29,475 nucleotides of DNA, taken from a virus (lineage: Duplodnaviria > Heunggongvirae > Uroviricota > Caudoviricetes). The notes under the pieces are model-generated. The model saw only the letters and a program-made list of their open reading frames with translations. It had not been told where the DNA came from and ran no database searches. This document shows positions 2,876-15,566 of this stretch, piece by piece (positions within the stretch are counted from its first letter, which is position 1; the number at the start of each line of letters is the position of its first letter). The translations under genes were made by a program, and so were the position numbers. Where the stretch lies: positions 1 to 29,475 of the IMG/VR virus record IMGVR_UViG_2778261167_000005; one strand, 5' to 3'.

Positions 2876-3967
2876 TTAAGCCACGTATTCCGGTTTCATA
2901 TCCGCCAGGGTGATGCTGAACTGATCGTGCAGTTCGTCGCCCAGATGACGTTTCGCCGTTGCAAGAACTCGCTCAACTTCCCCAAACCGTTCAGCTGCAT
3001 CCGGTTCATCCGGAGACGGCAGGGAGTTTATCGCGGCTTCAACCTTGTTACGTGAATCAACCAGGTAGTAGCGCTTCACTGCCTTATTCTTCAGCTCGGT
3101 GAACAGGGCAGATCCGAGCGTGGCCTTCGCGCTTTCGATATCAGCGCGCAGTGCTTTGGCGCTATCAACATCCTGCGCAGCATCGATGCGTTCGCGGAAA
3201 TCATCGGCAAGAGCGTCGATATTTACCGACGATTCGTGTGCGCTTTGCGTAGTTGTGACGGTGTCACCTGCGATTTCAGCAACGCTCATTCGTTGGGCTG
3301 AGCCAGGGTTAATAACTTTTTCTTCTCGTTCTTCGACTTCATCGGCACTGTAAACACCGAGAATCACATCAGGGCAGTACAAGCGAGCCCAGCGCTTTAC
3401 CGCGAGATAAGCGAGCTGCTGACGCGGATCACTTGCCCATAGTGTCGAATTACGAACCTGAGCCTGAGAAAGCATGAGTACCAGTTCGCGTGGCTCATCC
3501 TCGCCTTTCATAGTTGCCCACACACGAACTCCTACACCGGCCTCATCCTTTAAATCCCAACCGGGCGCGATGTACTTATTGCCTTTAGAACTGGTTCTCT
3601 CTACAAATCGACCAATGATGTTTTCCCATGGACCAAACCAATCGTAATGAAGGCGATCTTTTGTAGGCGACATGTTGGTAACAACCGCATTAACCAGTTG
3701 AGCTTCGTAACCCAATACTCCGCTATTACCGACGATGTGGGTCTTCTGAGCTACGGCAAAGGGGTCCATACCCCATCGTGCGGCCTGCATGACCACAGCC
3801 ATGCAGGCATCTGGTTTTCCGCGGAAGTGGTCAGGTACAAAAGCGCCACTATTTGCCATCACTGTCGACAAGGTGCGTAGGCGGTCGAAAAGTTCCCCAT
3901 TAGTCAAAATTGAGATGTTATCGATCATTTGCGTCTTGTTTTCGTTGGTAGTAATTGCAGTAGACAT
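2876..3967 (-). CDS. recT: Phage single-strand annealing recombinase (RecT-like)
   Basis: 363-aa ORF directly downstream of the RecE-like exonuclease in the same operon; family assignment rests on synteny and general resemblance to RecT. Confidence 0.6.
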   Translation of the reverse strand: MSTAITTNENKTQMIDNISILTNGELFDRLRTLSTVMANSGAFVPDHFRGKPDACMAVVMQAARWGMDPFAVAQKTHIVGNSGVLGYEAQLVNAVVTNMSPTKDRLHYDWFGPWENIIGRFVERTSSKGNKYIAPGWDLKDEAGVGVRVWATMKGEDEPRELVLMLSQAQVRNSTLWASDPRQQLAYLAVKRWARLYCPDVILGVYSADEVEEREEKVINPGSAQRMSVAEIAGDTVTTTQSAHESSVNIDALADDFRERIDAAQDVDSAKALRADIESAKATLGSALFTELKNKAVKRYYLVDSRNKVEAAINSLPSPDEPDAAERFGEVERVLATAKRHLGDELHDQFSITLADMKPEYVA

Positions 3968-3979
3968 GTTCTTTTCCCC

Positions 3980-6913
3980 TTATGCCTGAGTACGCAGCGC
4001 TTCAAGGCGGCGCAGGTCGAAGTCGTTCAGTTCGTCGGTGTAGTCTTCGGTTATCGGTGCAGACCAGCAATCGGTGTCATACGCATTTGCGAGTGCACGC
4101 ATGGTGCGCTGATACTCCAGCAGCCCGAGGTCGAGCAAATCTTCCGATGCCTCAATTACCGCCACCCAGTGGTAGCCCTCGTCTTTGTTGACGAAGATCC
4201 AGAAGAACTGATCAAAGTCGGCAACGGAGCAATACATGCCAGCGCTGAGGTGGTAGTCGCGGTCGATGATTTCCCGGTGCAGTTTGGCGCGCAAACCGTC
4301 TTGCTTAACGCGTCCCATGCTGATCGTCTTCAGGTCAACACCGATACGAACGCCGTTGATTTGAACCTCAAGGTCAGGGCGCACACGGACTTCCAGACCG
4401 GTTTCGTCGTCCATCCCGAAATAACTTGTTTCCACTGAACGGGAAGGATGGCGCAGCAGTTTCCCGGCTGATTCATGATTCAGTAGGGCTTGCTGAATTG
4501 CCGTGGCCAGCGTCAGTTGTTCTCTGGACAGGATGGTTTTCCCATCAACGCTATCGCGCCATTGCTGCTCAAATTCATCAGCGAAAATGGCCTCCGGGCT
4601 GACCGCGCGTATCGCCGCCTGAAGTTCTTCTTTCTTACCGGTGAGCTTCAGTTGCTCGGCCTTTGGCTTATCCGCGTTAAATTCTCGAATGAACGCCTTC
4701 ATGGAGTCGGTGGTGGTAAACGCCTCAGCCGGAATACCTGGGAATACCGCAAACTCTTCGTGGAGCTTTTCGGGCTCCAGGGCCAGGGTGTGCGCCAGGC
4801 TACCGAACGTCAGCGCCTCGCTGCTTTCGCGACGGATAGTCTTGGTCACGTGACGGCCGTGATAGAACATCAGGCTGACACGTGCGTCTTTCACCTGGGT
4901 TGAGCTGATACCGTTCGCTGCGTGATAAACCTCGTTCGGCAGACCTTCATAGCGGCCAGGTTCGAAGTAAGCAGGGTACACAACACCCGGTTCGTCAGAT
5001 TGAGCTTCTGGCTCGGTTTGGGCCGCAACCGGTTCGGTTTGGTTTACAGAATCGCTGTTTTGGCTAACAGAATCCGCATTCTGGCTCACATCGGCTTGCT
5101 GGCCGGTATGTGACTCTTCACCAGTTTCCAGACTGCTTTCGCCTGACTGCACTTCATCACCAGCCTGTTCTTCATCACTGACAGTTTCTTCCATCTGCAC
5201 ATTGCTGGTGGTTTCCTCATTAAGTGGTGAACGGTTATCTGTTTGGGTTTGTTGATCGCCCATCAGGCCATCAATGGAGAATACGCCGTTGCCCATGTTG
5301 GCGATTTGTGGCTGTTTAGCAGCTGTTTTCTGCTCTGCAGCGACCTGCTCATTAACCTCATTTTCCCAGCTGACGTCCGGCGCATGACCAGCATCAGCCA
5401 GCGTTTCTTCTGAGGGGTTTGAGTGGTCATTTTCGGTTAGATTGGCATTGATATATGCCCGCAACCGCCCAGGAAAGTTAACCAATTCTGATGATGTGCC
5501 GCGGATGAGTGCAAAGATGGCGGCGCGTGAATAGTCCAGGATGCCAGCGGTTTTGCGCAGCGCCTCAGACCATTCGCTGAACGGACTTTCTTTCTTGCTG
5601 ACAATCTCTTTAGCGCGACGGTAGACCCCACCAGGTATGTCGTAGATATTGAAATCCATTGGCAAGGTGGCCAGCGCAATTTCAACATCCAAAGTGTCCA
5701 GTGTGTGGACATAGTCGGTATTACGATCGGTCTTATTTCCACCGCCAGCATTGGTTTTGACGTCAGTACGTTGAATCTGCGCAATGCGGTTACCTTTCTG
5801 CCATTCCTTGACCAGCAGGCCACGGTCGATGTAATCAGTGTTGAACCACACAGTCAGGAACTGGATAACTGTTGCCAGCTCCGGTTTTTTACCGTCGACA
5901 GGGAAGACTTTCTTAACAGCATTCACGACTTTATGAATATCGTGCTCAATGGCTTTTTTGAATGCTTCCACATTCTCAGCAGCCAGCAGCAGGTTCTGGA
6001 TGTACGTGTCATCAGTGTCCATCTCAAGGCGGACAATCTCGTTTTTCTGCCCAGCGTCGATGTGATAGAGATATTCACCATCACCGATGAACTGAGCCAG
6101 TACGCGCTGACGGAATGGCAGGGTGGCTACGACGATCAGGTTCGGCTGATCTGGCTGCTGAGATTGTTCTTCGGGACCGACTTCATCACCAACGCTGGTG
6201 GTTTCAGTTTTGAGCAGAGGAAACCTTCCACTGCGCCAGTCTTCAACCAGTTGATTGCGATCACCTGCTTCTGCGTTCACCCAGTCAGACATGAAAGCAG
6301 CGATCACTTCAGGTCCATGCTCTTCACCCTGTTCGAAGATGTCTTTAATCGCCTGAATCATTTTCCACTCAGCATTAAGACTGAGTTCGCCAACTTCAGG
6401 AACATCATTTTTAACCTGCAGCAAGTTCTGGAGATAGGTATTGCTTTCGGCCAGTGACATTTCGCTGGCAGCCAGCTGCTGCTCTTTAGTGACGTGAGTC
6501 TGGTACTTATCGCTCATCAGATGGAAGGCAAAACGGACTGCTGGAGTGCGGTTTTCTAACGATACATTCTCGTCAGAAGTCGCTACTTCATCGGTATTTT
6601 TTACATCGGCAGGGATAGTGGTGACAACGTCGCCAGCGGCCTTTGGCAGCCAGGTGCGCCCGTCGTCCTGTAGTTCGTAACGATCACACCAGGTGAAATC
6701 AACTTCACCTTCTTCCGGCAGGTCATCAACAACAGGAAAATCTGTGCGAATTGGTTTAGCGTAGTCCTTGCCACGACCGGTCTCGATACCTGCATCTTCC
6801 AGCGCAACGTCCAGCATCAGGTTGGCGCGAGCCTCAGTTTTTGCAGTGAACCAGATAAAAGCATCAGGCTTTCCCGACTTTTGTGTGGCTTTAACTACAT
6901 ATGGAAATTCCAT
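3980..6913 (-). CDS. recE: Exodeoxyribonuclease VIII (RecE-like 5'-3' dsDNA exonuclease, PD-(D/E)XK C-terminal domain)
   Basis: 977-aa ORF; C-terminal region (...YFEPGRYEGLPNEVYHAANGISSTQVKD..., ...RPDLEV...DLKT...) resembles the RecE nuclease domain; long acidic low-complexity linker; paired with recT. Confidence 0.7.
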   Translation of the reverse strand: MEFPYVVKATQKSGKPDAFIWFTAKTEARANLMLDVALEDAGIETGRGKDYAKPIRTDFPVVDDLPEEGEVDFTWCDRYELQDDGRTWLPKAAGDVVTTIPADVKNTDEVATSDENVSLENRTPAVRFAFHLMSDKYQTHVTKEQQLAASEMSLAESNTYLQNLLQVKNDVPEVGELSLNAEWKMIQAIKDIFEQGEEHGPEVIAAFMSDWVNAEAGDRNQLVEDWRSGRFPLLKTETTSVGDEVGPEEQSQQPDQPNLIVVATLPFRQRVLAQFIGDGEYLYHIDAGQKNEIVRLEMDTDDTYIQNLLLAAENVEAFKKAIEHDIHKVVNAVKKVFPVDGKKPELATVIQFLTVWFNTDYIDRGLLVKEWQKGNRIAQIQRTDVKTNAGGGNKTDRNTDYVHTLDTLDVEIALATLPMDFNIYDIPGGVYRRAKEIVSKKESPFSEWSEALRKTAGILDYSRAAIFALIRGTSSELVNFPGRLRAYINANLTENDHSNPSEETLADAGHAPDVSWENEVNEQVAAEQKTAAKQPQIANMGNGVFSIDGLMGDQQTQTDNRSPLNEETTSNVQMEETVSDEEQAGDEVQSGESSLETGEESHTGQQADVSQNADSVSQNSDSVNQTEPVAAQTEPEAQSDEPGVVYPAYFEPGRYEGLPNEVYHAANGISSTQVKDARVSLMFYHGRHVTKTIRRESSEALTFGSLAHTLALEPEKLHEEFAVFPGIPAEAFTTTDSMKAFIREFNADKPKAEQLKLTGKKEELQAAIRAVSPEAIFADEFEQQWRDSVDGKTILSREQLTLATAIQQALLNHESAGKLLRHPSRSVETSYFGMDDETGLEVRVRPDLEVQINGVRIGVDLKTISMGRVKQDGLRAKLHREIIDRDYHLSAGMYCSVADFDQFFWIFVNKDEGYHWVAVIEASEDLLDLGLLEYQRTMRALANAYDTDCWSAPITEDYTDELNDFDLRRLEALRTQA

Positions 6914-7225: not shown

Positions 7226-7432
7226 TTAATGGCTGAGGCCATTCCCCAGACCGTTCAGATAAACTTCAACCAGCAAATCCCTGGTGTAAGTCATCTCAAC
7301 GCCTCGATGCAGATACAAACGACCACGAGCGTTAGCTGATGCTGTCCAGGTTGAGTCTTTGTGTTTGACGAGCATCCCAGGCTGAACTGCGCCGCGGTTT
7401 ACCGTCTGTGTACCGTAGTACTGATGAACCAT
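7226..7432 (-). CDS. Hypothetical small protein, first gene of the leftward operon (Kil-like by position)
   Basis: Start taken at ATG 7432 (MVHQYYG...) with GGAG RBS; alternative GTG start at 7534. Kil assignment is positional only. Confidence 0.35.
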   Translation of the reverse strand: MVHQYYGTQTVNRGAVQPGMLVKHKDSTWTASANARGRLYLHRGVEMTYTRDLLVEVYLNGLGNGLSH

Positions 7433-7666: not shown

Positions 7667-7705
7667 TGGAGTAAGTAAAGCACCATTTTACTTTATGGTC
7701 AAACA
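7667..7705 (-). promoter_or_regulatory. Leftward early promoter PL with operator palindrome AGTAAA-N7-TTTACT
   Basis: Minus strand reads TTGACC (-35), 17-bp spacer, TTTACT (-10); the operator at 7675..7693 overlaps the spacer and -10; 35-nt stretch is nearly identical to the PR region at 9563..9598. Confidence 0.6.
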
Positions 7706-7845
7706 AAAGGTGTTCTACGTGGAGGATGTTGCGTGACGGAAGGCAAAAAAATCGGCGCGATGGCTGAGATCGGAGAGAGGAGCAGGCATTTAGCATGTTC
7801 GTCACTCGGTGCTAATCTTTCTGGGTGGCACAACGGAGCGGAACG

Positions 7846-8043
7846 ATGAAGAGCAAAGACGAACAGACTGGGTTGGTTGGCTTGGCGATTGGCGCGGCAG
7901 TGATTGGCTTGGTATCAGTTCAAAAACCCATTAACCGGGCGAGCATCATTGACGAACTGGTGAGACTGGGGAGACAGAAGGGCGATGGCGTTCAGGATGA
8001 GGTGTTTGAGAAGGCGGCGGAGCTGGTGAGTAAAGGGGTATAA
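7846..8043 (+). CDS. Small hydrophobic protein (65 aa), probable single-pass membrane peptide
   Basis: ATG at 7846 with GGAG 7 nt upstream; MKSKDEQTGLVGLAIGAAVIGLVSV...; lies between PL and the repressor-linked moron, convergent with it. Confidence 0.45.
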   Translation: MKSKDEQTGLVGLAIGAAVIGLVSVQKPINRASIIDELVRLGRQKGDGVQDEVFEKAAELVSKGV

Positions 8044-8099: not shown

Positions 8100-9020
8100 T
8101 TAAAAAGGTAAATCAATTTGCCTTTGTGGGTTGATTATTTTTTTTACCTTCACTATCTCATATGAGGTTTTTATACCTTTATCAGCAAGATACTGAGTGA
8201 TTTTTAGATCAACGAGCAAAAGGTCGCCTTTTGCAAAAGCAACTGATTGCTCATCAATCGCATTGAGGAATTTCTCATCACTGACCTCGGCTTGAAATGG
8301 GCTTGCACCATCTGAAAAATTCCATTTATGGCCTTCTCGAAATGAGATATCAAGAGGATGAAGTGCTCTTTCTGTAACGGACTCAGAAATAATAGTTTCT
8401 TCAGTGCTGTCTACTTTGAAAAAACATGCTTCACTCTTTGTAACTTCAACAAAAGTATGACCATCATCGATAGTGACTGCAAAACTATCGATCCCATCCC
8501 TCTCCAATGGTTTAGAGATTACATTCTCAAGAGCTCTGCGTATTTTTTTATTTTTATATAAATCTATGACTTGATTGTCAAAAACCTCACTTTCATCATC
8601 GATGAAAATTGTGGAGCTACCGTCAAATGTTGGCTCAATACGTTTAATTTTTTTTGGACCTAACCATTTTATTAGCTGAATCAGGCCCTTATATGACTGC
8701 TTAGTGGCTAAGTAGCCAAAACCTACCAAGCTTATGATATTGCAAGCAGCGGAAGCATTATTTCCAGAAAAAACACCTAGTATTTGACTTGTTATGGATG
8801 TTGACTGCGCTATGAGATCAATTCCAAAGGAACCCGCTTTAAATGAAGCGTTGACTTTAATTGATATACGCCTTTCTTTTCCATAGATAGTTTTTCCCGC
8901 CTCTTCTAAAGCATCGGATAGTGACAAAAGCGCCGGCGCAAGATCACGTACATCCATCTCGTGCGTGTCCAAAGCTGGGCCGTCGTAAACTATTCTGAAC
9001 TTCATATCGTCACTATCCAT
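8100..9020 (-). CDS. Uncharacterized 306-aa protein in a low-GC moron downstream of the repressor (rex/sieB-equivalent position)
   Basis: Long ORF with ATG at 9020; distinctly AT-rich compared with flanking phage genes; co-oriented with the repressor; own terminator; no motif I recognise. Confidence 0.6.
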   Translation of the reverse strand: MDSDDMKFRIVYDGPALDTHEMDVRDLAPALLSLSDALEEAGKTIYGKERRISIKVNASFKAGSFGIDLIAQSTSITSQILGVFSGNNASAACNIISLVGFGYLATKQSYKGLIQLIKWLGPKKIKRIEPTFDGSSTIFIDDESEVFDNQVIDLYKNKKIRRALENVISKPLERDGIDSFAVTIDDGHTFVEVTKSEACFFKVDSTEETIISESVTERALHPLDISFREGHKWNFSDGASPFQAEVSDEKFLNAIDEQSVAFAKGDLLLVDLKITQYLADKGIKTSYEIVKVKKIINPQRQIDLPF

Positions 9021-9135
9021 CAATGCCTATCCTGTGCATGATTATAAACCTGATCGTATATACAGTACATTTAATAAGTCATTACTTAGATGTTCTCTTA
9101 CCCACTGCTACTCTCTATGCACTGACCAGAGGTCT

Positions 9136-9519
9136 TCAATCCCCCTGCGATCTGATCCGCCCCTTCATGTACTTCTCATACAACTCATCCAACTCTTTCA
9201 GGCGAATGGCAAAGATGCGGAGCATGTTCTGTTGCTCTTCTTCCGGTAGTTGGCGGTAGAGCTCCAGCAGACGCTGTTCGTCCGGCTTGAGGCCGTCTTT
9301 CTCATCGACATCCTCACCGAGTAACCAAGGTACCGAAACGCCAGCTGCATCAGCGATGGCCAGTGCAGATTGTTTGCTAATCCTTCCTGTTTTGAACCAG
9401 CTGGATACAGCTTGCTTACTGACACCAGCAATCTTGGCCATCTCCGTTTTGGAGAAGCCTTTATTGTTCAGTTCTGTGAGTCTCGAAATAAGACCGTCTG
9501 TCAATGTGTTTTCACTCAT
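9136..9519 (-). CDS. Prophage repressor, HTH XRE-family (RacR/CI-like, no peptidase domain)
   Basis: 127 aa from ATG 9519; HTH segment KTEMAKIAGVSKQAVSSWFK; divergent from the Cro-like gene; operators in the 97-bp intergenic region. Confidence 0.75.
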   Translation of the reverse strand: MSENTLTDGLISRLTELNNKGFSKTEMAKIAGVSKQAVSSWFKTGRISKQSALAIADAAGVSVPWLLGEDVDEKDGLKPDEQRLLELYRQLPEEEQQNMLRIFAIRLKELDELYEKYMKGRIRSQGD

Positions 9520-9616
9520 CTCATGATTGTAAATGATTGCTTTACTCTCTGATAGGGATGTATTGTTTGACACGTCAGTAAAACAATGCTTTACTTCCTT
9601 CATCTAAGGAGGTCCC
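9520..9616. promoter_or_regulatory. Immunity switch region: PR promoter plus two operators (O1 9577..9595, O2 9528..9546) and a candidate PRM
   Basis: PR: TTGACA 9567..9572, 17-bp spacer, TTTACT 9590..9595, AGGAGG RBS 9607..9612. O1 AGTAAAacaatgcTTTACT; O2 TGTAAAtgattgcTTTACT. Minus-strand TACAAT lies immediately before the repressor ATG. Confidence 0.65.
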
Positions 9617-9826
9617 ATGACTGGTATTGAAAATGCAATTCTCCGATCTGGCTCGGCCAGCGCGCTTGGCGCTTTGATCGGCGTTTCAAAAATGGCTGTT
9701 TCGCTGTGGCGCCGTAAAGGAATTCCTGCCGAACGAGTGCTACCAGTGTTTGAGGCAACCGGCGTAACGCCCCACGAACTGCGCCCAGATCTCTACCCAA
9801 ATCCCACTGACGGTTTACCAAAGTAG
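9617..9826 (+). CDS. Cro-like HTH regulator (YdaS-like)
   Basis: 69 aa, strong AAGGAGG RBS; HTH LGALIGVSKMAVSLWRRKG; first gene of the rightward operon, divergent from the repressor. Confidence 0.7.
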   Translation: MTGIENAILRSGSASALGALIGVSKMAVSLWRRKGIPAERVLPVFEATGVTPHELRPDLYPNPTDGLPK

Positions 9827-9837
9827 GAGCACTAACC

Positions 9838-10377
9838 ATGCAGACACTTACTTATCAGAATGATAGCGACATTACTCAAGGGGTAATGATAAATCGCGCT
9901 CAAGCGCGCAGGGGGCCGAGCCATGAAGATATTCGTGACGCGGTTCGCTCCTGGGCTGGCGCCGATGGCCAGGACGTAGTCACGGCTCTGATCATCGAAG
10001 AGTACCTGGCGCAAGGAGGTGATGAGATCACTTTTCCTGATGATCTCTGCCGAAAACGCCAGAAGCTGTTCCGCTTTCTGGACAACCACTTCAACAGTGA
10101 ACGGTACCGCGAGAACGTTCGCCAGCTGACTCCGGCAATCCTCGCAGTTCTGCCGATTGAATACCGCAACCGTCTGCTGCCAGAAGACAACATCATGGCT
10201 CGCCTGGCACGTATGGAGAAGGAAACCAGCGAAGCGAAGATAGCTGTCGCAATGGATGCGCCGCGTCATCAGAAGCTGAAAGAGCTGAGTGAAGGGATCG
10301 TGGAGATGTACCGCGTTGACCCTGGCTTAACCGGGCCGCTGATGGAAATGGTGCAGATGATGCTGGGGGTTGTATGA
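9838..10377 (+). CDS. YdaT-like protein (Rac YdaT family)
   Basis: 179 aa; conserved-looking segments EEYLAQGGDE and LTPAILAVLP recall E. coli YdaT; sits immediately after the Cro/YdaS-like gene as in Rac. Confidence 0.55.
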   Translation: MQTLTYQNDSDITQGVMINRAQARRGPSHEDIRDAVRSWAGADGQDVVTALIIEEYLAQGGDEITFPDDLCRKRQKLFRFLDNHFNSERYRENVRQLTPAILAVLPIEYRNRLLPEDNIMARLARMEKETSEAKIAVAMDAPRHQKLKELSEGIVEMYRVDPGLTGPLMEMVQMMLGVV

Positions 10378-10541
10378 CGGGTTCAAAAATGGCGAAAGCC
10401 GTGGTGCTCGAACACCAACGGCCTTCAGGTGCAAATGTAGAGACAAATGCAAAATCAGTATGCCCACACAATCATATTTTTACCAGTGGAAGTTCTGTTC
10501 ACTGGAACGATCTCATCGCTTTCATTTATCAGGAGGACGCA

Positions 10542-11381
10542 ATGGCCGGTGACTGGATAAAAATGCGCGCCGAGCTGCATACGCATCCGAAAATTGTCCG
10601 CATGTCGTCCGCTTTGAAAGCGGACAGATTGCGCGTTGTTGGTGGACTACATTCCGCATGGTGTCTTTTTGATGTCCATTCTACCGATGGTTTTCTTCAC
10701 GGATACACACCGGAAACTCTCGACGATTTAATCGGCTTCCCTGGCTTTGCGCGAGCAATGATTGCTGTCGGATGGCTGGAAGAAGAGGGTGAAAACCTAG
10801 TAATGCCGCGGTTTGATGTGCACAACGGACAGTCCGCCAAGCGTCGAGCACAGGATGCAGACAGGAAGAAAAAATCCCGCAAAATGTCCGCTTGTGATGC
10901 GGACAAAAAGGGGACCAGAGAAGAGAAGAGAAGAGAAGATATAAAAGATCAAAACCCAGAGAGAGAACGCGCGGGAGAAAACTCTTCCGTGGAAGTCATT
11001 TCTGGCAATGGAACTTCATCACCAACCATTCAACATCAACCGGCCGCTGAAGATTTCGGTGCTGGATGCGCGTTCGGTCCACTTGGCAAATTTCCAATCA
11101 CTGACTCCTGGGCTCCATCTCCTGATTTCGTTCGTCAGGCTGCACTCTGGGGAAAAAACGTCGGTGCAGAACCGGGTTACACCGCTGAAGAACTCCAGCA
11201 GTTCCGTGATTACTGGATCCCTGATGGCAAAGTTAAACACCAGTTGGCCTGGGAACAGACGTTTGCTGACAGCCTGTTGCAATCGCGTAGTCGAATCAAA
11301 AGGGCAAACTCTGCGGGATCGCGAGATGTGAACCGCATTTCTGAGCCAGATAAAACCATCCCAACCGGATTCAGGGGGTAA
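10542..11381 (+). CDS. Phage replication initiation protein (replisome organizer N-terminus, DnaT-like C-terminal domain)
   Basis: ATG 10542 with AGGAGG RBS; alternative upstream start 10374 overlaps the ydaT-like stop (ATGA). C-terminal ...FRDYWIPDGKVKHQLAWEQTFADSLL... is DnaT-like; internal palindromic repeats. Confidence 0.6.
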   Translation: MAGDWIKMRAELHTHPKIVRMSSALKADRLRVVGGLHSAWCLFDVHSTDGFLHGYTPETLDDLIGFPGFARAMIAVGWLEEEGENLVMPRFDVHNGQSAKRRAQDADRKKKSRKMSACDADKKGTREEKRREDIKDQNPERERAGENSSVEVISGNGTSSPTIQHQPAAEDFGAGCAFGPLGKFPITDSWAPSPDFVRQAALWGKNVGAEPGYTAEELQQFRDYWIPDGKVKHQLAWEQTFADSLLQSRSRIKRANSAGSRDVNRISEPDKTIPTGFRG

Positions 11382-11722: not shown

Positions 11723-12120
11723 AACCAACATACGAACAACTTGAACAGCAGGTGCTCGAACTGTCAGTACAGCTCGCTAACTCCGAGAGCAAGTGCAGGG
11801 AGCTGGCCGGGGTAGTTGCTGATAACACTGATTTAAAATCGCTGATTGAACAACATGCAGGCTCTATCGCTGTATGTCCTAACTGCTCACACGAAGAGCC
11901 AAGCGAAACTGACGATATCGTTGCGTTATATCGCTCACTGAAAACCCCAGCCACCGACGCTTTCCTGGCTGAAGTGCGGGTGCAGGGCGTGGAGATGTTT
12001 GCTGACTTCTGCGGTGAAGAAAACTCTGTATTCGTCGAGGCCAAGGCTTACTACCGTTCACTTGCGGATGCAGTTGAAGAGTTTGCCGCACAGCTACGCC
12101 AAGGAGCCGCGCATGAGTAA
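11719..12120 (+). CDS. Hypothetical phage protein with N-terminal coiled coil
   Basis: 133 aa, GGGAGA RBS, overlapping stop/start with neighbours. Confidence 0.5.
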   Translation: MKPTYEQLEQQVLELSVQLANSESKCRELAGVVADNTDLKSLIEQHAGSIAVCPNCSHEEPSETDDIVALYRSLKTPATDAFLAEVRVQGVEMFADFCGEENSVFVEAKAYYRSLADAVEEFAAQLRQGAAHE

Positions 12121-12589
12121 CGCAGCGACTGTTTTGGATGTGTGCTGCGGCTCCCGCATGTTCTGGTTCAACAAGCAGGACACCCGCGCCGTGTTCGCTG
12201 ATATCCGAGCCGAAGAGCACGAGCTGTGCGATGGTCGCCGCCTGGTTATCAGTCCCGACCTGATTTCCGACTTCCGTGCGTTGCCATTCGCCGACGCATC
12301 GTTTCCGGTTGTGGTGTTTGATCCACCACACCTTGAACGTGTCGGCCAAACAGCCTGGATGGGTAAAAAATACGGGCGACTGAACAAAAAAACGTGGCGT
12401 TCGGACCTGCGAGCCGGATTCAAAGAAGCTTTTCGCGTGTTGTGGCCACATGGTGTGCTCATCTTCAAATGGAACGAAACACAAATACCGGTTAGCCAGA
12501 TTCTGGCGCTTACAGACGTGAAACCGGCAATTGGCCAGCGAACTGGGAAGAACGACAAAACCCACTGGATTATCTTTGTGAAGGACTAA
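12113..12589 (+). CDS. Small class-I SAM-dependent methyltransferase (motif I LDVCCGS, motif IV DPPH); putative nucleic-acid amino-methyltransferase
   Basis: 158 aa; glycine-rich SAM motif near the N-terminus and VVFDPPH; AAGGAG RBS; start overlaps the upstream stop (ATGAGTAA). Confidence 0.6.
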   Translation: MSNAATVLDVCCGSRMFWFNKQDTRAVFADIRAEEHELCDGRRLVISPDLISDFRALPFADASFPVVVFDPPHLERVGQTAWMGKKYGRLNKKTWRSDLRAGFKEAFRVLWPHGVLIFKWNETQIPVSQILALTDVKPAIGQRTGKNDKTHWIIFVKD

Positions 12590-12748: not shown

Positions 12749-13381
12749 TTATTTTTTCATGACTCGTTTGGCTTTGCGTTCCATGCGGTTTAATGCCGCT
12801 CTTGAGTCGATCCGGTTCAAGTCTGCCTTACTTCGGATTAGACGTTCTTTCGGGTTCCATCCATGATCTAACTCAATTCGGAGTTGTTTCCGGATATCTG
12901 CTGATAAAGCTGCAACTTTCAGCCCTAAATCTGCGTAGAGCCTCCGGCGTTTCAACATGTATGAATCCATCATATCACTACCGAACTCCGGGTTAGAGGT
13001 CATCTCACGAAGTTCTTCTCTGACTTTCAACAATTCGATATCGATTGATTGCAAACGATAGATTAAGGTTGGTTCAAGGTACTTATATTCGCCTTTAACT
13101 GTGCTCATATCGAAATCAGGCGAGGGAACTTGTACTTCGAGACGGTCCGGATAATCCGGTTCCGGTGAGCTTGCATCGAATCCCCGATCCCAGGAAACAT
13201 CTGCACACTGACTAACGAATTTATCGAGCAGGAACACAAGTTGAACACTAATGTAAGCGCGTTCCTCTTTACGCTTTCTTATGTCGAACGCAACTTCTTT
13301 GATCAGGTTGAAACAAAGTGGAAAACCGATTGCAGCAGCACCAGCTAAAAAGCCTTGCATAGCAGGACTAAGACCGAACAT
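12749..13381 (-). CDS. Uncharacterized membrane-anchored protein (N-terminal TM helix), opposite-strand moron
   Basis: ORF on the minus strand inside a plus-strand operon; N-terminal hydrophobic segment FLAGAAAIGFPLCFNLI; lower GC; start uncertain (ATG 13381, ATG 13360 or TTG 13408), no clear SD. Confidence 0.5.
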   Translation of the reverse strand: MFGLSPAMQGFLAGAAAIGFPLCFNLIKEVAFDIRKRKEERAYISVQLVFLLDKFVSQCADVSWDRGFDASSPEPDYPDRLEVQVPSPDFDMSTVKGEYKYLEPTLIYRLQSIDIELLKVREELREMTSNPEFGSDMMDSYMLKRRRLYADLGLKVAALSADIRKQLRIELDHGWNPKERLIRSKADLNRIDSRAALNRMERKAKRVMKK

Positions 13382-13685
13382 ATGTGGACACCGAAAGAGA
13401 GCGAGCAAAGGATTATAAACGTAGTGATGGGGTGATTAAAACGCGTTGAACTGGCTGTTTTGAAATGGACTTTTAAACTTTGACTAAGGTCATTAAATCA
13501 TCGCGATTTGAAGTTTAAGCGAAAATAGTTGATGAGGGGTATTGACCTTTAGTGCTCGCCGGTGACAAGCCAACTCAGGAAGAGATTAATGATGCTGTAA
13601 GGGACGCGCGAATTACCCATCCGTGGAAATTCGCCTGGCATTGATTGATGTATAATCCCTCTCAATGTATCGAGGGGGATTATAC

Positions 13686-13943
13686 ATGTCGGACTGGAAC
13701 ATCGCAGCAAAATCGAAAGAAGAGCAGGACAAGGTTAACGTCGACCTTGCTGCCTCCGGAGTTGCGTACAAAGAGCGTCTGAACATGCCAGTTATCGCCG
13801 AGCAGGTATCCCGTGAGCAGCCAGAGCACTTACGCGAATACTTCATGGAGCGCGTTCGCTACTACCGCGAGCAAAGCCTGACGCTTCCAAAAGCATCCGA
13901 TCCGCGCTATCTGGATATGGCAGCCCAGAACGAGAAGAAGTAA
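13686..13943 (+). CDS. Small hypothetical protein (possibly the cold-shock-induced YnaE/YdfK family of Rac/Qin; uncertain)
   Basis: 85 aa, ATG 13686 with GAGGGGG RBS; preceded by a palindrome overlapping a TATAAT box. Confidence 0.45.
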
Positions 13944-14197: not shown

Positions 14198-14691
14198 TCG
14201 ATCGATAATACCGATCGATTTGATTAAATTGATCTATGAAATCGATTATCAAATAAGCACAGCGCAGCAACAAATTACCAACCTGACTTTCCTCGCCACG
14301 AGTGAAATATGTCCCCTGACGACATCGACACCTTTGTCATTTACCTGACGAGAGCATTCCAATCAGATATTTACAATCGACAGTTTTGACGTAGCCATCT
14401 GTTAAAAATAACGATCAATTTTTGCGCGAAAGTAGCAATAAAATTTATCTAAATCAATCGGATAAATGACCTTGCGCAAACAGGCCTTTCATGTGCATAC
14501 TTAAGCAAAACAGACAAATACTGTTTATATGTACAGTTGTTTTGGAGTATAGTTAAGATGTTGCAGTAAATAGTTTTATTTTTCTTCCAGCCAACCTATT
14601 AGGAAATTCGTGCCATTTGGTATGTTGGTTCAGTGAACGGGATTATCCCGGCTGGAAGAGTGAAATTTGTTGATAGCAAAGAGGGGGTTTT

Positions 14692-14931
14692 GTGAAGGAA
14701 AGTCAGGAGCAAGGCGATTGGTACGACATTATCAGGCGTTCTGATGGAAAGCTTATGGCCTCAATGCCACTGGATCGTCAGTATCTCGTCTATAGCAGAA
14801 ATGGCCTGGTATCATGCCGTCCATTACTGGAGGATGAAGGGGTCTTCAACCTTTCATCTGGGACTCGTTTTCTTCGCCGACTTGGCTACCGCATCACCCA
14901 ACCCTCTGATATCATAATATCAACGGATTGA
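14692..14931 (+). CDS. Hypothetical small protein (GTG start)
   Basis: 79 aa; GAGGGGG 5 nt upstream of GTG 14692. Confidence 0.45.
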   Translation: MKESQEQGDWYDIIRRSDGKLMASMPLDRQYLVYSRNGLVSCRPLLEDEGVFNLSSGTRFLRRLGYRITQPSDIIISTD

Positions 14932-14966: not shown

Positions 14967-15566
14967 ATGGCGCACGAACTACAACTAATCAAGCAGTCTT
15001 CAGGAATCCTGATCCCCGCTACGCCGGAGACCAGTGATTTACTGCAATCAAAATTCAAACTCGGCGCCGTGCTGGTGGCCGAGTTCCGGCAGGTACGCAA
15101 TCCTGCCTTTCACCGTCGCTTCTTCGCGTTACTCAATCTCGGTTTCGAATACTGGGAACCCACCGGCGGGGCGATCTCATCCAACGAGCGCAAACTGGTA
15201 ACCGGCTACGCCAAATTTCTTGCCTCATTCGCGGGAAGCGAAGCCGCGCTCCTGGATGCTGCCGAACAATATCTCGACCGTATCGCCGATAAGCGAGCCG
15301 GTAGCATCAGCATCTGCAAATCCTATGACGCATACCGTGCGTGGGTGATCGTCGAGTCTGGCCACTACGACGCTATCCAGCTTCCTGACGGAACCCTTCG
15401 CAAACATCCCCGCAGTATTGCTTTTGCCAATATGGACGAAGCTGAGTTCCAGCAGCTGTACAAAGCCGCGTTGGATGTCCTCTGGCGCTGGATATTGTCC
15501 TGCACGTTCCGCACGCAGCAGGAGGCCGAGAACGCCGCCGCCCAACTGATGAGCTTCGGGGGATGA
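14967..15566 (+). CDS. Phage protein, probably DUF1367 family (nin region)
   Basis: 199 aa, GGAGA RBS; family recalled from lambdoid prophage annotations, not verified. Confidence 0.5.
   Translation: MAHELQLIKQSSGILIPATPETSDLLQSKFKLGAVLVAEFRQVRNPAFHRRFFALLNLGFEYWEPTGGAISSNERKLVTGYAKFLASFAGSEAALLDAAEQYLDRIADKRAGSISICKSYDAYRAWVIVESGHYDAIQLPDGTLRKHPRSIAFANMDEAEFQQLYKAALDVLWRWILSCTFRTQQEAENAAAQLMSFGG

Follow-up and report, generated by a model that had tools for sequence, protein, structure and literature searches.

A YdaS/YdaT locus of a Rac/Gifsy-like lambdoid prophage as a probable CI/Cro/CII-type switch with a candidate SOS-controlled antirepressor

Do the YdaS- and YdaT-family proteins encoded by a lambdoid prophage form an addiction unit, as the word 'toxin' in their family names would imply, or do they belong to the switch by which a phage chooses between lysis and lysogeny? 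The question is raised by positions 9,136 to 10,377 of IMG/VR virus record IMGVR_UViG_2778261167_000005, a 29,475-nucleotide (nt) stretch of DNA that was analysed at its full length and is called the window below. A first-pass annotation made from the sequence alone had described this locus as a RacR/YdaS/YdaT-type immunity module that reproduces the architecture of the Rac prophage and may double as an addiction or growth-control unit. The open reading frame (ORF) listing confirms three ORFs in the described arrangement, 9136..9603 (minus strand), 9617..9826 (plus strand) and 9838..10377 (plus strand). Our analysis, which drew on about 180 related loci overall with smaller subsets for operators and immunity classes, indicates that the locus is very probably a CI/Cro/CII-type bistable lysis–lysogeny switch of an apparently intact Rac/Gifsy-like lambdoid prophage, probably induced by an antirepressor under SOS control. 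The three genes of the module, with product lengths in amino acids (aa), are assigned as follows.

9136..9519, minus strand: prophage maintenance repressor, 127 aa, a short DicA/Gifsy-type helix-turn-helix (HTH) protein; the ORF as listed runs to 9603
9617..9826, plus strand: Cro analogue, 69 aa, YdaS family, assigned from Pfam, PDB and relatives
9838..10377, plus strand: CII analogue, 179 aa, YdaT family, assigned from Pfam, PHROG and PDB

Pfam assignment of the three proteins, the check suggested with the first-pass annotation, placed the 69-aa and 179-aa proteins above the YdaS and YdaT family thresholds and matched the minus-strand protein to HTH_3 and Phage_CI_repr. Against YdaS_toxin (PF15943, cut-off 30), the 69-aa protein reaches 47.5 bits across profile positions 1–63 of 65, and its best match among solved structures is a bona fide Cro protein (3bd1, E 1.4e-8). 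Its gene is the first of the rightward early operon, and the 97 nt that separate its start from the repressor ATG contain two palindromic operators. The PHROGs of both the repressor and the 69-aa protein are transcription-regulator families. For the YdaS protein of prophage CP-933P, operator binding and repression of the repressor promoter have been demonstrated (PMC8630535). The 179-aa protein reaches 91 bits with YdaT_toxin (PF06254, cut-off 21), falls over nearly its full length into PHROG 163, 'CII-like transcriptional activator' (3.3e-57), and matches PDB entries 3c4r and 8bt1, the latter being the DNA-binding YdaT of CP-933P. The arginine of the YdaT recognition helix, R60 in CP-933P and R57 in Rac, is conserved, with QKLFRFLDN here aligning with QKIFRWLDK in 8bt1 and IYHRWLKG in Rac, and the neighbouring tryptophan is replaced by phenylalanine. 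Published work on CP-933P shows that its YdaS and YdaT are analogues of Cro and CII and do not form a toxin–antitoxin pair (PMC8630535), and that YdaT is a POU-like tetramer that binds DNA at TTGATT-N6-AATCAA (PMC9986795). An alternative ydaT start at M17 (ATG 9886), the residue from which PHROG 163 aligns, was rejected; this codon is ATG, GTG or CTG in relatives, and the ATG at 9838 is conserved there together with its Shine-Dalgarno (SD) sequence.

The divergent repressor belongs to a different family from the one first proposed. Its Pfam matches are to HTH families only, with no S24 peptidase (self-cleavage) domain, and it has the size and architecture of the DicA/GfoR-type short repressors, a class of ~130–150 aa with an N-terminal HTH and a C-terminal helical region. 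It aligns over its full length with DicA of the Qin prophage (29% over 115 aa, E 5e-13) and with GtgR/GfoR of the Gifsy prophages (25% identity over 107 aa), and both alignments include the C-terminal motif LLELYxQLPEEEQ, of the LLxL(Y/F)xxLPExE type held in common with the Gifsy repressor. The NCBIfam DicA model scores it at 43.1 bits against a cut-off of 101, and by profile and alignment it is a DicA relative, not a member of the DicA subfamily. Similarity to RacR is restricted to 11 identities over 27 residues within the HTH (E 7e-4 in a single comparison), and RacR and the repressor have no PHROG in common. The Rac architecture thus holds for a repressor divergent from a Cro-like YdaS-family gene that is followed by a YdaT-family gene, and the designation of the repressor as RacR-type does not. 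The repressor of phage mEp237, in contrast, is 86% identical. PDB matches of the repressor to polyubiquitin and BurrH were dismissed as artefacts of a short motif, DGLKPDEQRL, summed over repeats.

The gene model of the repressor also changes. The 155-aa ORF is probably over-extended, with the true start at ATG 9519 and a product of 127 aa, because the DicA profile aligns only from residue 29 of the long ORF onwards, because ATG 9603 lacks an SD sequence and lies 13 nt from the cro ATG, because the 28 extra codons span operators and promoters, and because most close relatives with the same Cro and operators have not a single ATG in this segment. The control sites predicted around the shortened gene and to its left are these.

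9529..9545: operator GTAAATGATTGCTTTAC, adjoining the repressor gene and overlapping the PRM-like −10
9578..9594: operator GTAAAACAATGCTTTAC, overlapping the spacer and −10 of the PR-like promoter
7675-7691: operator GTAAAATGGTGCTTTAC, inside the PL-like promoter, upstream of kilR
9526..9531, minus strand: candidate PRM-like −10 TACAAT, read from the sequence, ending 6 nt before ATG 9519
9567..9595, plus strand: candidate PR-like promoter TTGACA-17 nt-TTTACT, followed by SD AAGGAGG and the cro ATG
7674..7702, minus strand: candidate PL-like promoter TTGACC-17 nt-TTTACT, upstream of kilR, recE and recT

The two operators between repressor and cro are 17-bp palindromes, and perfect GTAAA-N7-TTTAC occurs three times in the 29.5-kb window where 0.65 occurrences would be expected. 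Operator placement was followed in 30 related loci of the same immunity class (class A), in which the two sites lie 10 nt and 59 nt from the repressor ATG and have conserved half-sites around variable centres. Class-A loci with enough left flank generally carry one further operator 0.55–2.9 kb to the left of the repressor (two in one locus, L058), at a distance that varies with the cargo genes. The repressor/cro pairs of 117 loci form at least four classes; the palindromes are specific to each class but equivalently placed, a pattern that heteroimmune lambdoid phages would be expected to show. A middle, third operator was sought between the two control-region sites and only a weak half-site-like GATAGG was found. 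The promoters are assigned from perfect −35 elements, spacing and conservation: the −35 TTGAC and spacing of the PR-like promoter are conserved across immunity classes, and the PL-like promoter is built identically, with its operator inside. At the PRM-like position, class-A relatives have TACAAT or TACACT, a placement that suggests a leaderless repressor mRNA. The cI mRNA of lambda is leaderless.

A further candidate control site lies within the ydaT coding sequence.

9886..9903: candidate YdaT-box ATGATAAATCGCGCTCAA, codons 17–22 of ydaT, assigned from conservation and likeness to the Rac and CP-933P boxes

Among 70 distinct sequences of the YdaT subfamily, this stretch of six codons ranks first of 175 for conservation at third codon positions. 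The commonest variant of the box, ATGATAAATCGCAATCAA, differs by one half-site base from ATGATTCATGAAAATCAA, the box footprinted in Rac (PMC11879457), and TGATAAATCGC is invariant in four otherwise diverged loci. In Rac, YdaT binds ATGATTCATGAAAATCAA, which overlaps its own start codon, and activates a reverse promoter, with increased expression of racR (PMC11879457). We propose that ATGATAAATCGCGCTCAA is a YdaT-box, a candidate binding site for leftward, PRE-like activation of the repressor gene. Scanning with the CP-933P consensus TTGATT-N6-AATCAA at a tolerance of three mismatches returned nothing at the ydaS/ydaT junction; it missed the local box because this differs at four positions, and the site was found only through its conservation. 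A PRE-like −10, TATCAT at 9860-9865 (minus strand), has the spacing to the box that class-II geometry would require, but its conservation is poor and we treat it as speculation.

The ydaT gene is exchanged independently of the repressor. An identical YdaT is found in many assemblies, and in one locus (L007) it is paired with a different repressor, cro and replication genes; such pairing with unrelated repressor/cro pairs is expected if the cII module lies outside the immunity-specific core. In loci that combine a different repressor and Cro with the same YdaT (L007, 2768-3540), similarity to the window resumes in the last 60–70 nt of cro (window 9760-9840, encoding ...TPHELRPDLYPNPTDGLP), which points to a recombination junction between immunity core and cII module within the 3′ end of cro. 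At the other end, homology among YdaT loci stops abruptly ~60 nt past the ydaT stop, and a conserved hairpin occupies 10382-10432, just 3′ of that stop, preceded by an A-run (on the minus strand, followed by a T-run). It exists in two versions whose stem sequences differ with the pairing kept, and looks like a minus-strand intrinsic terminator of the ydaT module, possibly serving an oop-like antisense RNA; no promoter for such an RNA was identified.

How could a prophage with this repressor be induced? Lambda-type cleavage is impossible as a route, because the repressor has no peptidase domain. The window contains the following two features.

14521..14536: strong LexA box CTGTTTATATGTACAG, 171 nt upstream of the 79-aa gene
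14692..14931, plus strand: candidate SOS-controlled antirepressor, 79 aa, GTG start, PHROG 340 ('unknown function')

The 79-aa gene stands directly upstream of a ninB/irsA-like DUF1367 gene that starts at 14967, the same slot that gftA and gfoA occupy in the Gifsy prophages. In Gifsy, a LexA-controlled operon comprises dinI, a small antirepressor gene and irsA, the small protein binds and inactivates the repressor, and the Gifsy-2 antirepressor gene has a reported GUG start (PMC3121763); DicA, likewise, has a small inactivating protein, Rem (PMC10448788). In 77 of 78 related loci, CTGT-N8-ACAG is kept around a variable centre ~172 nt upstream of the 79-aa gene, and every one of 132 homologues of this gene starts with GTG or TTG.

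Repressor family and 79-aa family occur together. Among 69 YdaT-anchored loci with adequate flanks, both are present in 34 and neither in 31, with a repressor hit only in three and a 79-aa hit only in one (Fisher p 5e-15); the four discordant loci have only distant hits of 29–35% identity. Anchoring on the 79-aa gene and searching 8 kb of upstream sequence recovered the repressor family in 54 of 63 loci, among which the Cro class, YdaT (32–97% identical or absent) and the replication genes all vary; for several of the remaining nine, the fetched sequence stops before the immunity region is complete. The 79-aa gene is present in every case where ninB is in range among species-representative genomes of Leclercia, Enterobacter, Atlantibacter, Franconibacter, Siccibacter and others. 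Where the same YdaT accompanies a Gifsy-type repressor (50–64% identical to GtgR), the 79-aa slot holds a homologue of GftA (74–75%) in five of six loci, and the sixth (L094) has only a weak 33% hit. From these patterns, the SOS-controlled antirepressor cognate to this repressor is probably the 79-aa protein. On the same evidence we lean towards viewing the GTG/TTG-start proteins of PHROG 340 as an unrecognised family of LexA-controlled antirepressors for this DicA-like repressor clade across Enterobacteriaceae. If so, a clade that spans at least four heteroimmune operator classes would be open to one type of antirepressor, which could co-induce heteroimmune prophages, a cross-talk of the kind described for Gifsy phages.

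The observed gene families, site placements and co-occurrence can be laid out as a regulatory scheme in which we infer the binding partners, promoter activities, YdaT activation and antirepression from the precedents of CP-933P (PMC8630535), Rac (PMC11879457), Gifsy (PMC3121763) and DicA/Rem (PMC10448788). During lysogeny, the 127-aa repressor would bind the three GTAAA-N7-TTTAC operators. Occupation of the PR-like operator would keep cro (ydaS), cII (ydaT) and the replication genes off, the second operator would overlap the repressor's own promoter region, and the PL-like operator would control kil and recET. Upon infection or induction, the YdaS-family Cro would be made first and would counteract repressor synthesis. 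YdaT would bind the box in its own 5′ coding region and drive leftward transcription through cro into the repressor gene, favouring the establishment of lysogeny. Induction would most likely follow the Gifsy route, with DNA damage removing LexA from the box at 14521-14536 and the newly made 79-aa protein binding, and thereby inactivating, the repressor.

Comparison with known systems places the immunity region among ordinary lambdoid ones of the Rac/Gifsy/CP-933P kind. Rac of K-12 has the same divergent order of repressor, YdaS-family gene and YdaT-family gene, recE, recT and kilR to the left, and a YdaT-box at the 5′ end of ydaT (ATGATT-N6-AATCAA there, ATGATA-N6-GCTCAA here). It differs in its repressor, which is unrelated to the present one beyond the HTH, in YdaS and YdaT proteins that are only 40% (over 52 aa) and 35% (over 115 aa) identical, and in replication genes that are ydaU/ydaV in place of an O-like gene with a DnaT domain and a DUF977 gene; Rac is cryptic, whereas the element here looks complete. 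Gifsy-1 and Gifsy-2 of Salmonella (PMC3121763) share a short ~130-aa repressor without a cleavage domain and with the same C-terminal motif, a LexA-controlled small gene with a non-ATG start just upstream of an irsA/ninB homologue, and, in Gifsy-1, a Cro analogue that is 54% identical. However, identity to the Gifsy repressor is only 25%, the CII analogues are of different types, YdaT here and Gifsy there, no dinI lies between the LexA box and the small gene, and the 79-aa protein belongs to another PHROG (340, against 4847 for the Gifsy antirepressor) and is at best a remote homologue of GftA. The paaR2-ydaS-ydaT locus of CP-933P in O157:H7 (PMC8630535, PMC9986795) likewise opposes a YdaS/YdaT pair to a repressor without a peptidase domain and has cargo downstream of the repressor, a toxin–antitoxin pair there and a candidate defence gene of type PDC-S42 here; its YdaT is distant (27.8 bits), its box differs in sequence and position, and CP-933P is defective with no known antirepressor. 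Qin dicA-dicC/Rem (PMC10448788) offers a repressor that aligns full-length with ours and is inactivated by a small antirepressor, although ours falls below the NCBIfam DicA threshold, the Cro is only weakly similar to DicC and the 79-aa protein has no similarity to Rem. The closest sequenced phage is mEp237, whose ydaT DNA is 88% identical, whose operators and layout are the same, and which also carries a homologue of the 79-aa gene upstream of ninB. Its three module genes are annotated as a repressor/HTH transcriptional regulator, a transcriptional repressor (the gene in the cro position) and CII. It departs from the window in a Cro that is only 63% identical, in O/P-type replication genes and in a dinI upstream of the small gene. 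A literature search on mEp237 returned DOI-string matches only.

Is any of this better explained by an addiction module? On that account YdaS, YdaT or both would be dedicated toxins checked by the repressor, and the module would serve to maintain the element or to regulate host growth, apart from any part in phage development. Pfam still names both families 'toxin', the toxicity reported for K-12 is real, RacR depletion being lethal through ydaS/ydaT of the Rac prophage (PMC5700377, PMC5700373), and Rac YdaT causes filamentation through host rcsA (PMC11879457). Yet both proteins here are DNA-binding HTH regulators whose structural relatives are Cro and YdaT/POU-like proteins, their genes stand exactly at the cro and cII positions in a phage that looks complete, as they do in mEp237, PADLOC gives no hit for either, and YdaT is exchanged independently of the repressor, unlike one half of a cognate toxin–antidote pair. 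The sequence and structure matches contain no toxic fold with a cognate neutralising antitoxin, the mark of a type II toxin–antitoxin system, and CP-933P YdaT is not toxic, its pair with YdaS having been shown not to be such a system (PMC8630535). The K-12 toxicity has itself been reinterpreted as the outcome of a cryptic prophage whose regulators are de-repressed (PMC5917428, PMC8630535); the published CP-933P and Rac work ascribes toxicity to ectopic or de-repressed expression (PMC5917428, PMC8630535, PMC9986795, PMC11879457), and that of Rac YdaT was traced to off-target activation of rcsA (PMC11879457). As the prophage looks complete, loss of its repressor would be lethal through lytic induction whether or not YdaS and YdaT are toxic, and the sequence gives no pointer to an addiction or growth-control role beyond that of any inducible prophage. 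We consider dedicated toxicity very improbable: the 'YdaS/YdaT toxin' labels are database misnomers and do not point to an addiction module. There is a similarly slim chance that the module is a domesticated remnant that now mainly regulates host genes, in a prophage that is defective outside the window. The window does end inside morphogenesis genes, and Rac YdaT binds a host promoter (PMC11879457), but the early, replication, nin, Q, lysis, terminase and portal ORFs are all full-length with family matches, the operators, LexA box and antirepressor candidate are all intact and conserved, and near-identical modules occur in IMG/VR viral contigs of 40–55 kb.

Several observations weigh against parts of the proposed lysis–lysogeny switch. 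The right half-site of the YdaT-box is degenerate (GCTCAA), the box departs at four positions from the CP-933P consensus, and no convincing PRE-like promoter was identified. The −10 hexamers of the PR-like and PL-like promoters, TTTACT, are weak and lack the usual A at position 2, and a sigma-70/terminator consensus scan called no promoter in the control region, its matches being no more numerous than in shuffles. The 79-aa protein has no curated family in Pfam or NCBIfam and no pairwise BLASTP similarity to GftA/GfoA or Rem, and hhalign of its family profile against GftA gives only a weak remote match (probability only 74%, E 2.8e-5, 48 columns). Co-occurrence of repressor and 79-aa protein could partly reflect shared ancestry of phage backbones, and the apparent completeness of the prophage is judged from the part of it that the window covers. 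The missing pairwise similarity also speaks for a variant in which the switch operates as described and induction proceeds without the 79-aa protein, through another antirepressor, Cro-driven spontaneous switching as in DicA/DicC, or proteolysis; DicA-controlled promoters do also switch spontaneously, independently of Rem and RecA (PMC10448788). The near-perfect co-occurrence across variable intervening genes, the conserved LexA box and the concerted swap to GftA with Gifsy-type repressors argue the other way, and we judge such a variant unlikely, though deserving of some weight.

Reading the locus as a CI/Cro/CII-type switch has its main value as a correction, because 'toxin' names derived from Pfam and from the Prokaryotic Genome Annotation Pipeline (PGAP) invite toxin–antitoxin readings of a standard Cro/CII pair. 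It also revises the gene model and family of the repressor, offers a likely function for a small-protein family labelled 'unknown', and yields testable wiring (operators, a coding-embedded YdaT-box and a candidate SOS-controlled antirepressor) for an immunity type that is widespread in Enterobacteriaceae and unstudied.

The gene order of the window is that of a lambdoid prophage, which appears intact as far as its listed ORFs, full-length with family matches, allow this to be judged. Besides the features given above it includes an O-like replication gene, a DUF977 gene and genes for lysozyme, terminase, portal and head proteins, together with the following.

681-1766: lambda-type integrase
2876-3967: RecT
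3980-6913: RecE
7226-7432: KilR
14967-15566: NinB/DUF1367, followed by NinG
17043-17867: Q antiterminator

Positions 1-680 show the prophage inserted next to E. coli yebY and the convergent small RNA pair SraC/RyeA and SdsR/RyeB (Rfam, 177 and 116 bits), a left flank that identifies the host as E. coli. At more than ~82% identity, the immunity region (window 9000-10500) was found in 0 of 5,426 complete E. coli genomes; the repressor family is widespread in Leclercia, Enterobacter, Atlantibacter, Pseudocitrobacter, Franconibacter and Siccibacter.

Cargo genes flank the repressor on its left. Directly downstream of it, a 307-aa gene at 8100-9020 (minus strand, GC content 39%) belongs to the NCBIfam 'LAPAL motif' family and matches the PADLOC defence candidate PDC-S42 (1.3e-87). 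Upstream of this gene lies a LexA-like box at 9050-9065, TACTGTATATACGATCAGG on the coding strand, followed by TATAAT, which is kept even where the protein is 60% identical and the flanking DNA unrelated. Position and box suggest that lambda's rexAB slot is filled here by a cargo or defence gene under SOS regulation. A 72-aa ORF at 7825-8043 (plus strand; PHROG 3975, of unknown function), with a GC-rich hairpin after it, separates the PDC-S42 gene from the PL-like promoter and represents further small cargo. A 219-aa gene in the nin region (12749-13408, minus strand) matches PADLOC PDC-S67 (2.5e-29) and is a probable moron.

To the right of ydaT, the replication ORF at 10374-11381 (plus strand) is probably shorter than listed, with its PHROG 2509 match beginning at residue 57 and a strong SD, AGGAGG, before ATG 10542; its C-terminus is a DnaT-type DNA-binding domain, and the next gene is DUF977 and not a P- or DnaC-type helicase loader. 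Rfam finds no RNA family in or near the immunity module; it matches the Hfq-binding small RNA isrI at 18157-18253 (plus strand, 57.6 bits against a gathering score of 45), between Q and the lysis genes. The early right operon further encodes an orphan type II DNA methyltransferase (11999-12589, plus strand; PADLOC MTase_II, 8e-71) and a HolE-like homologue of DNA polymerase III theta (13665-13943, plus strand; PHROG 1105, 6e-41).

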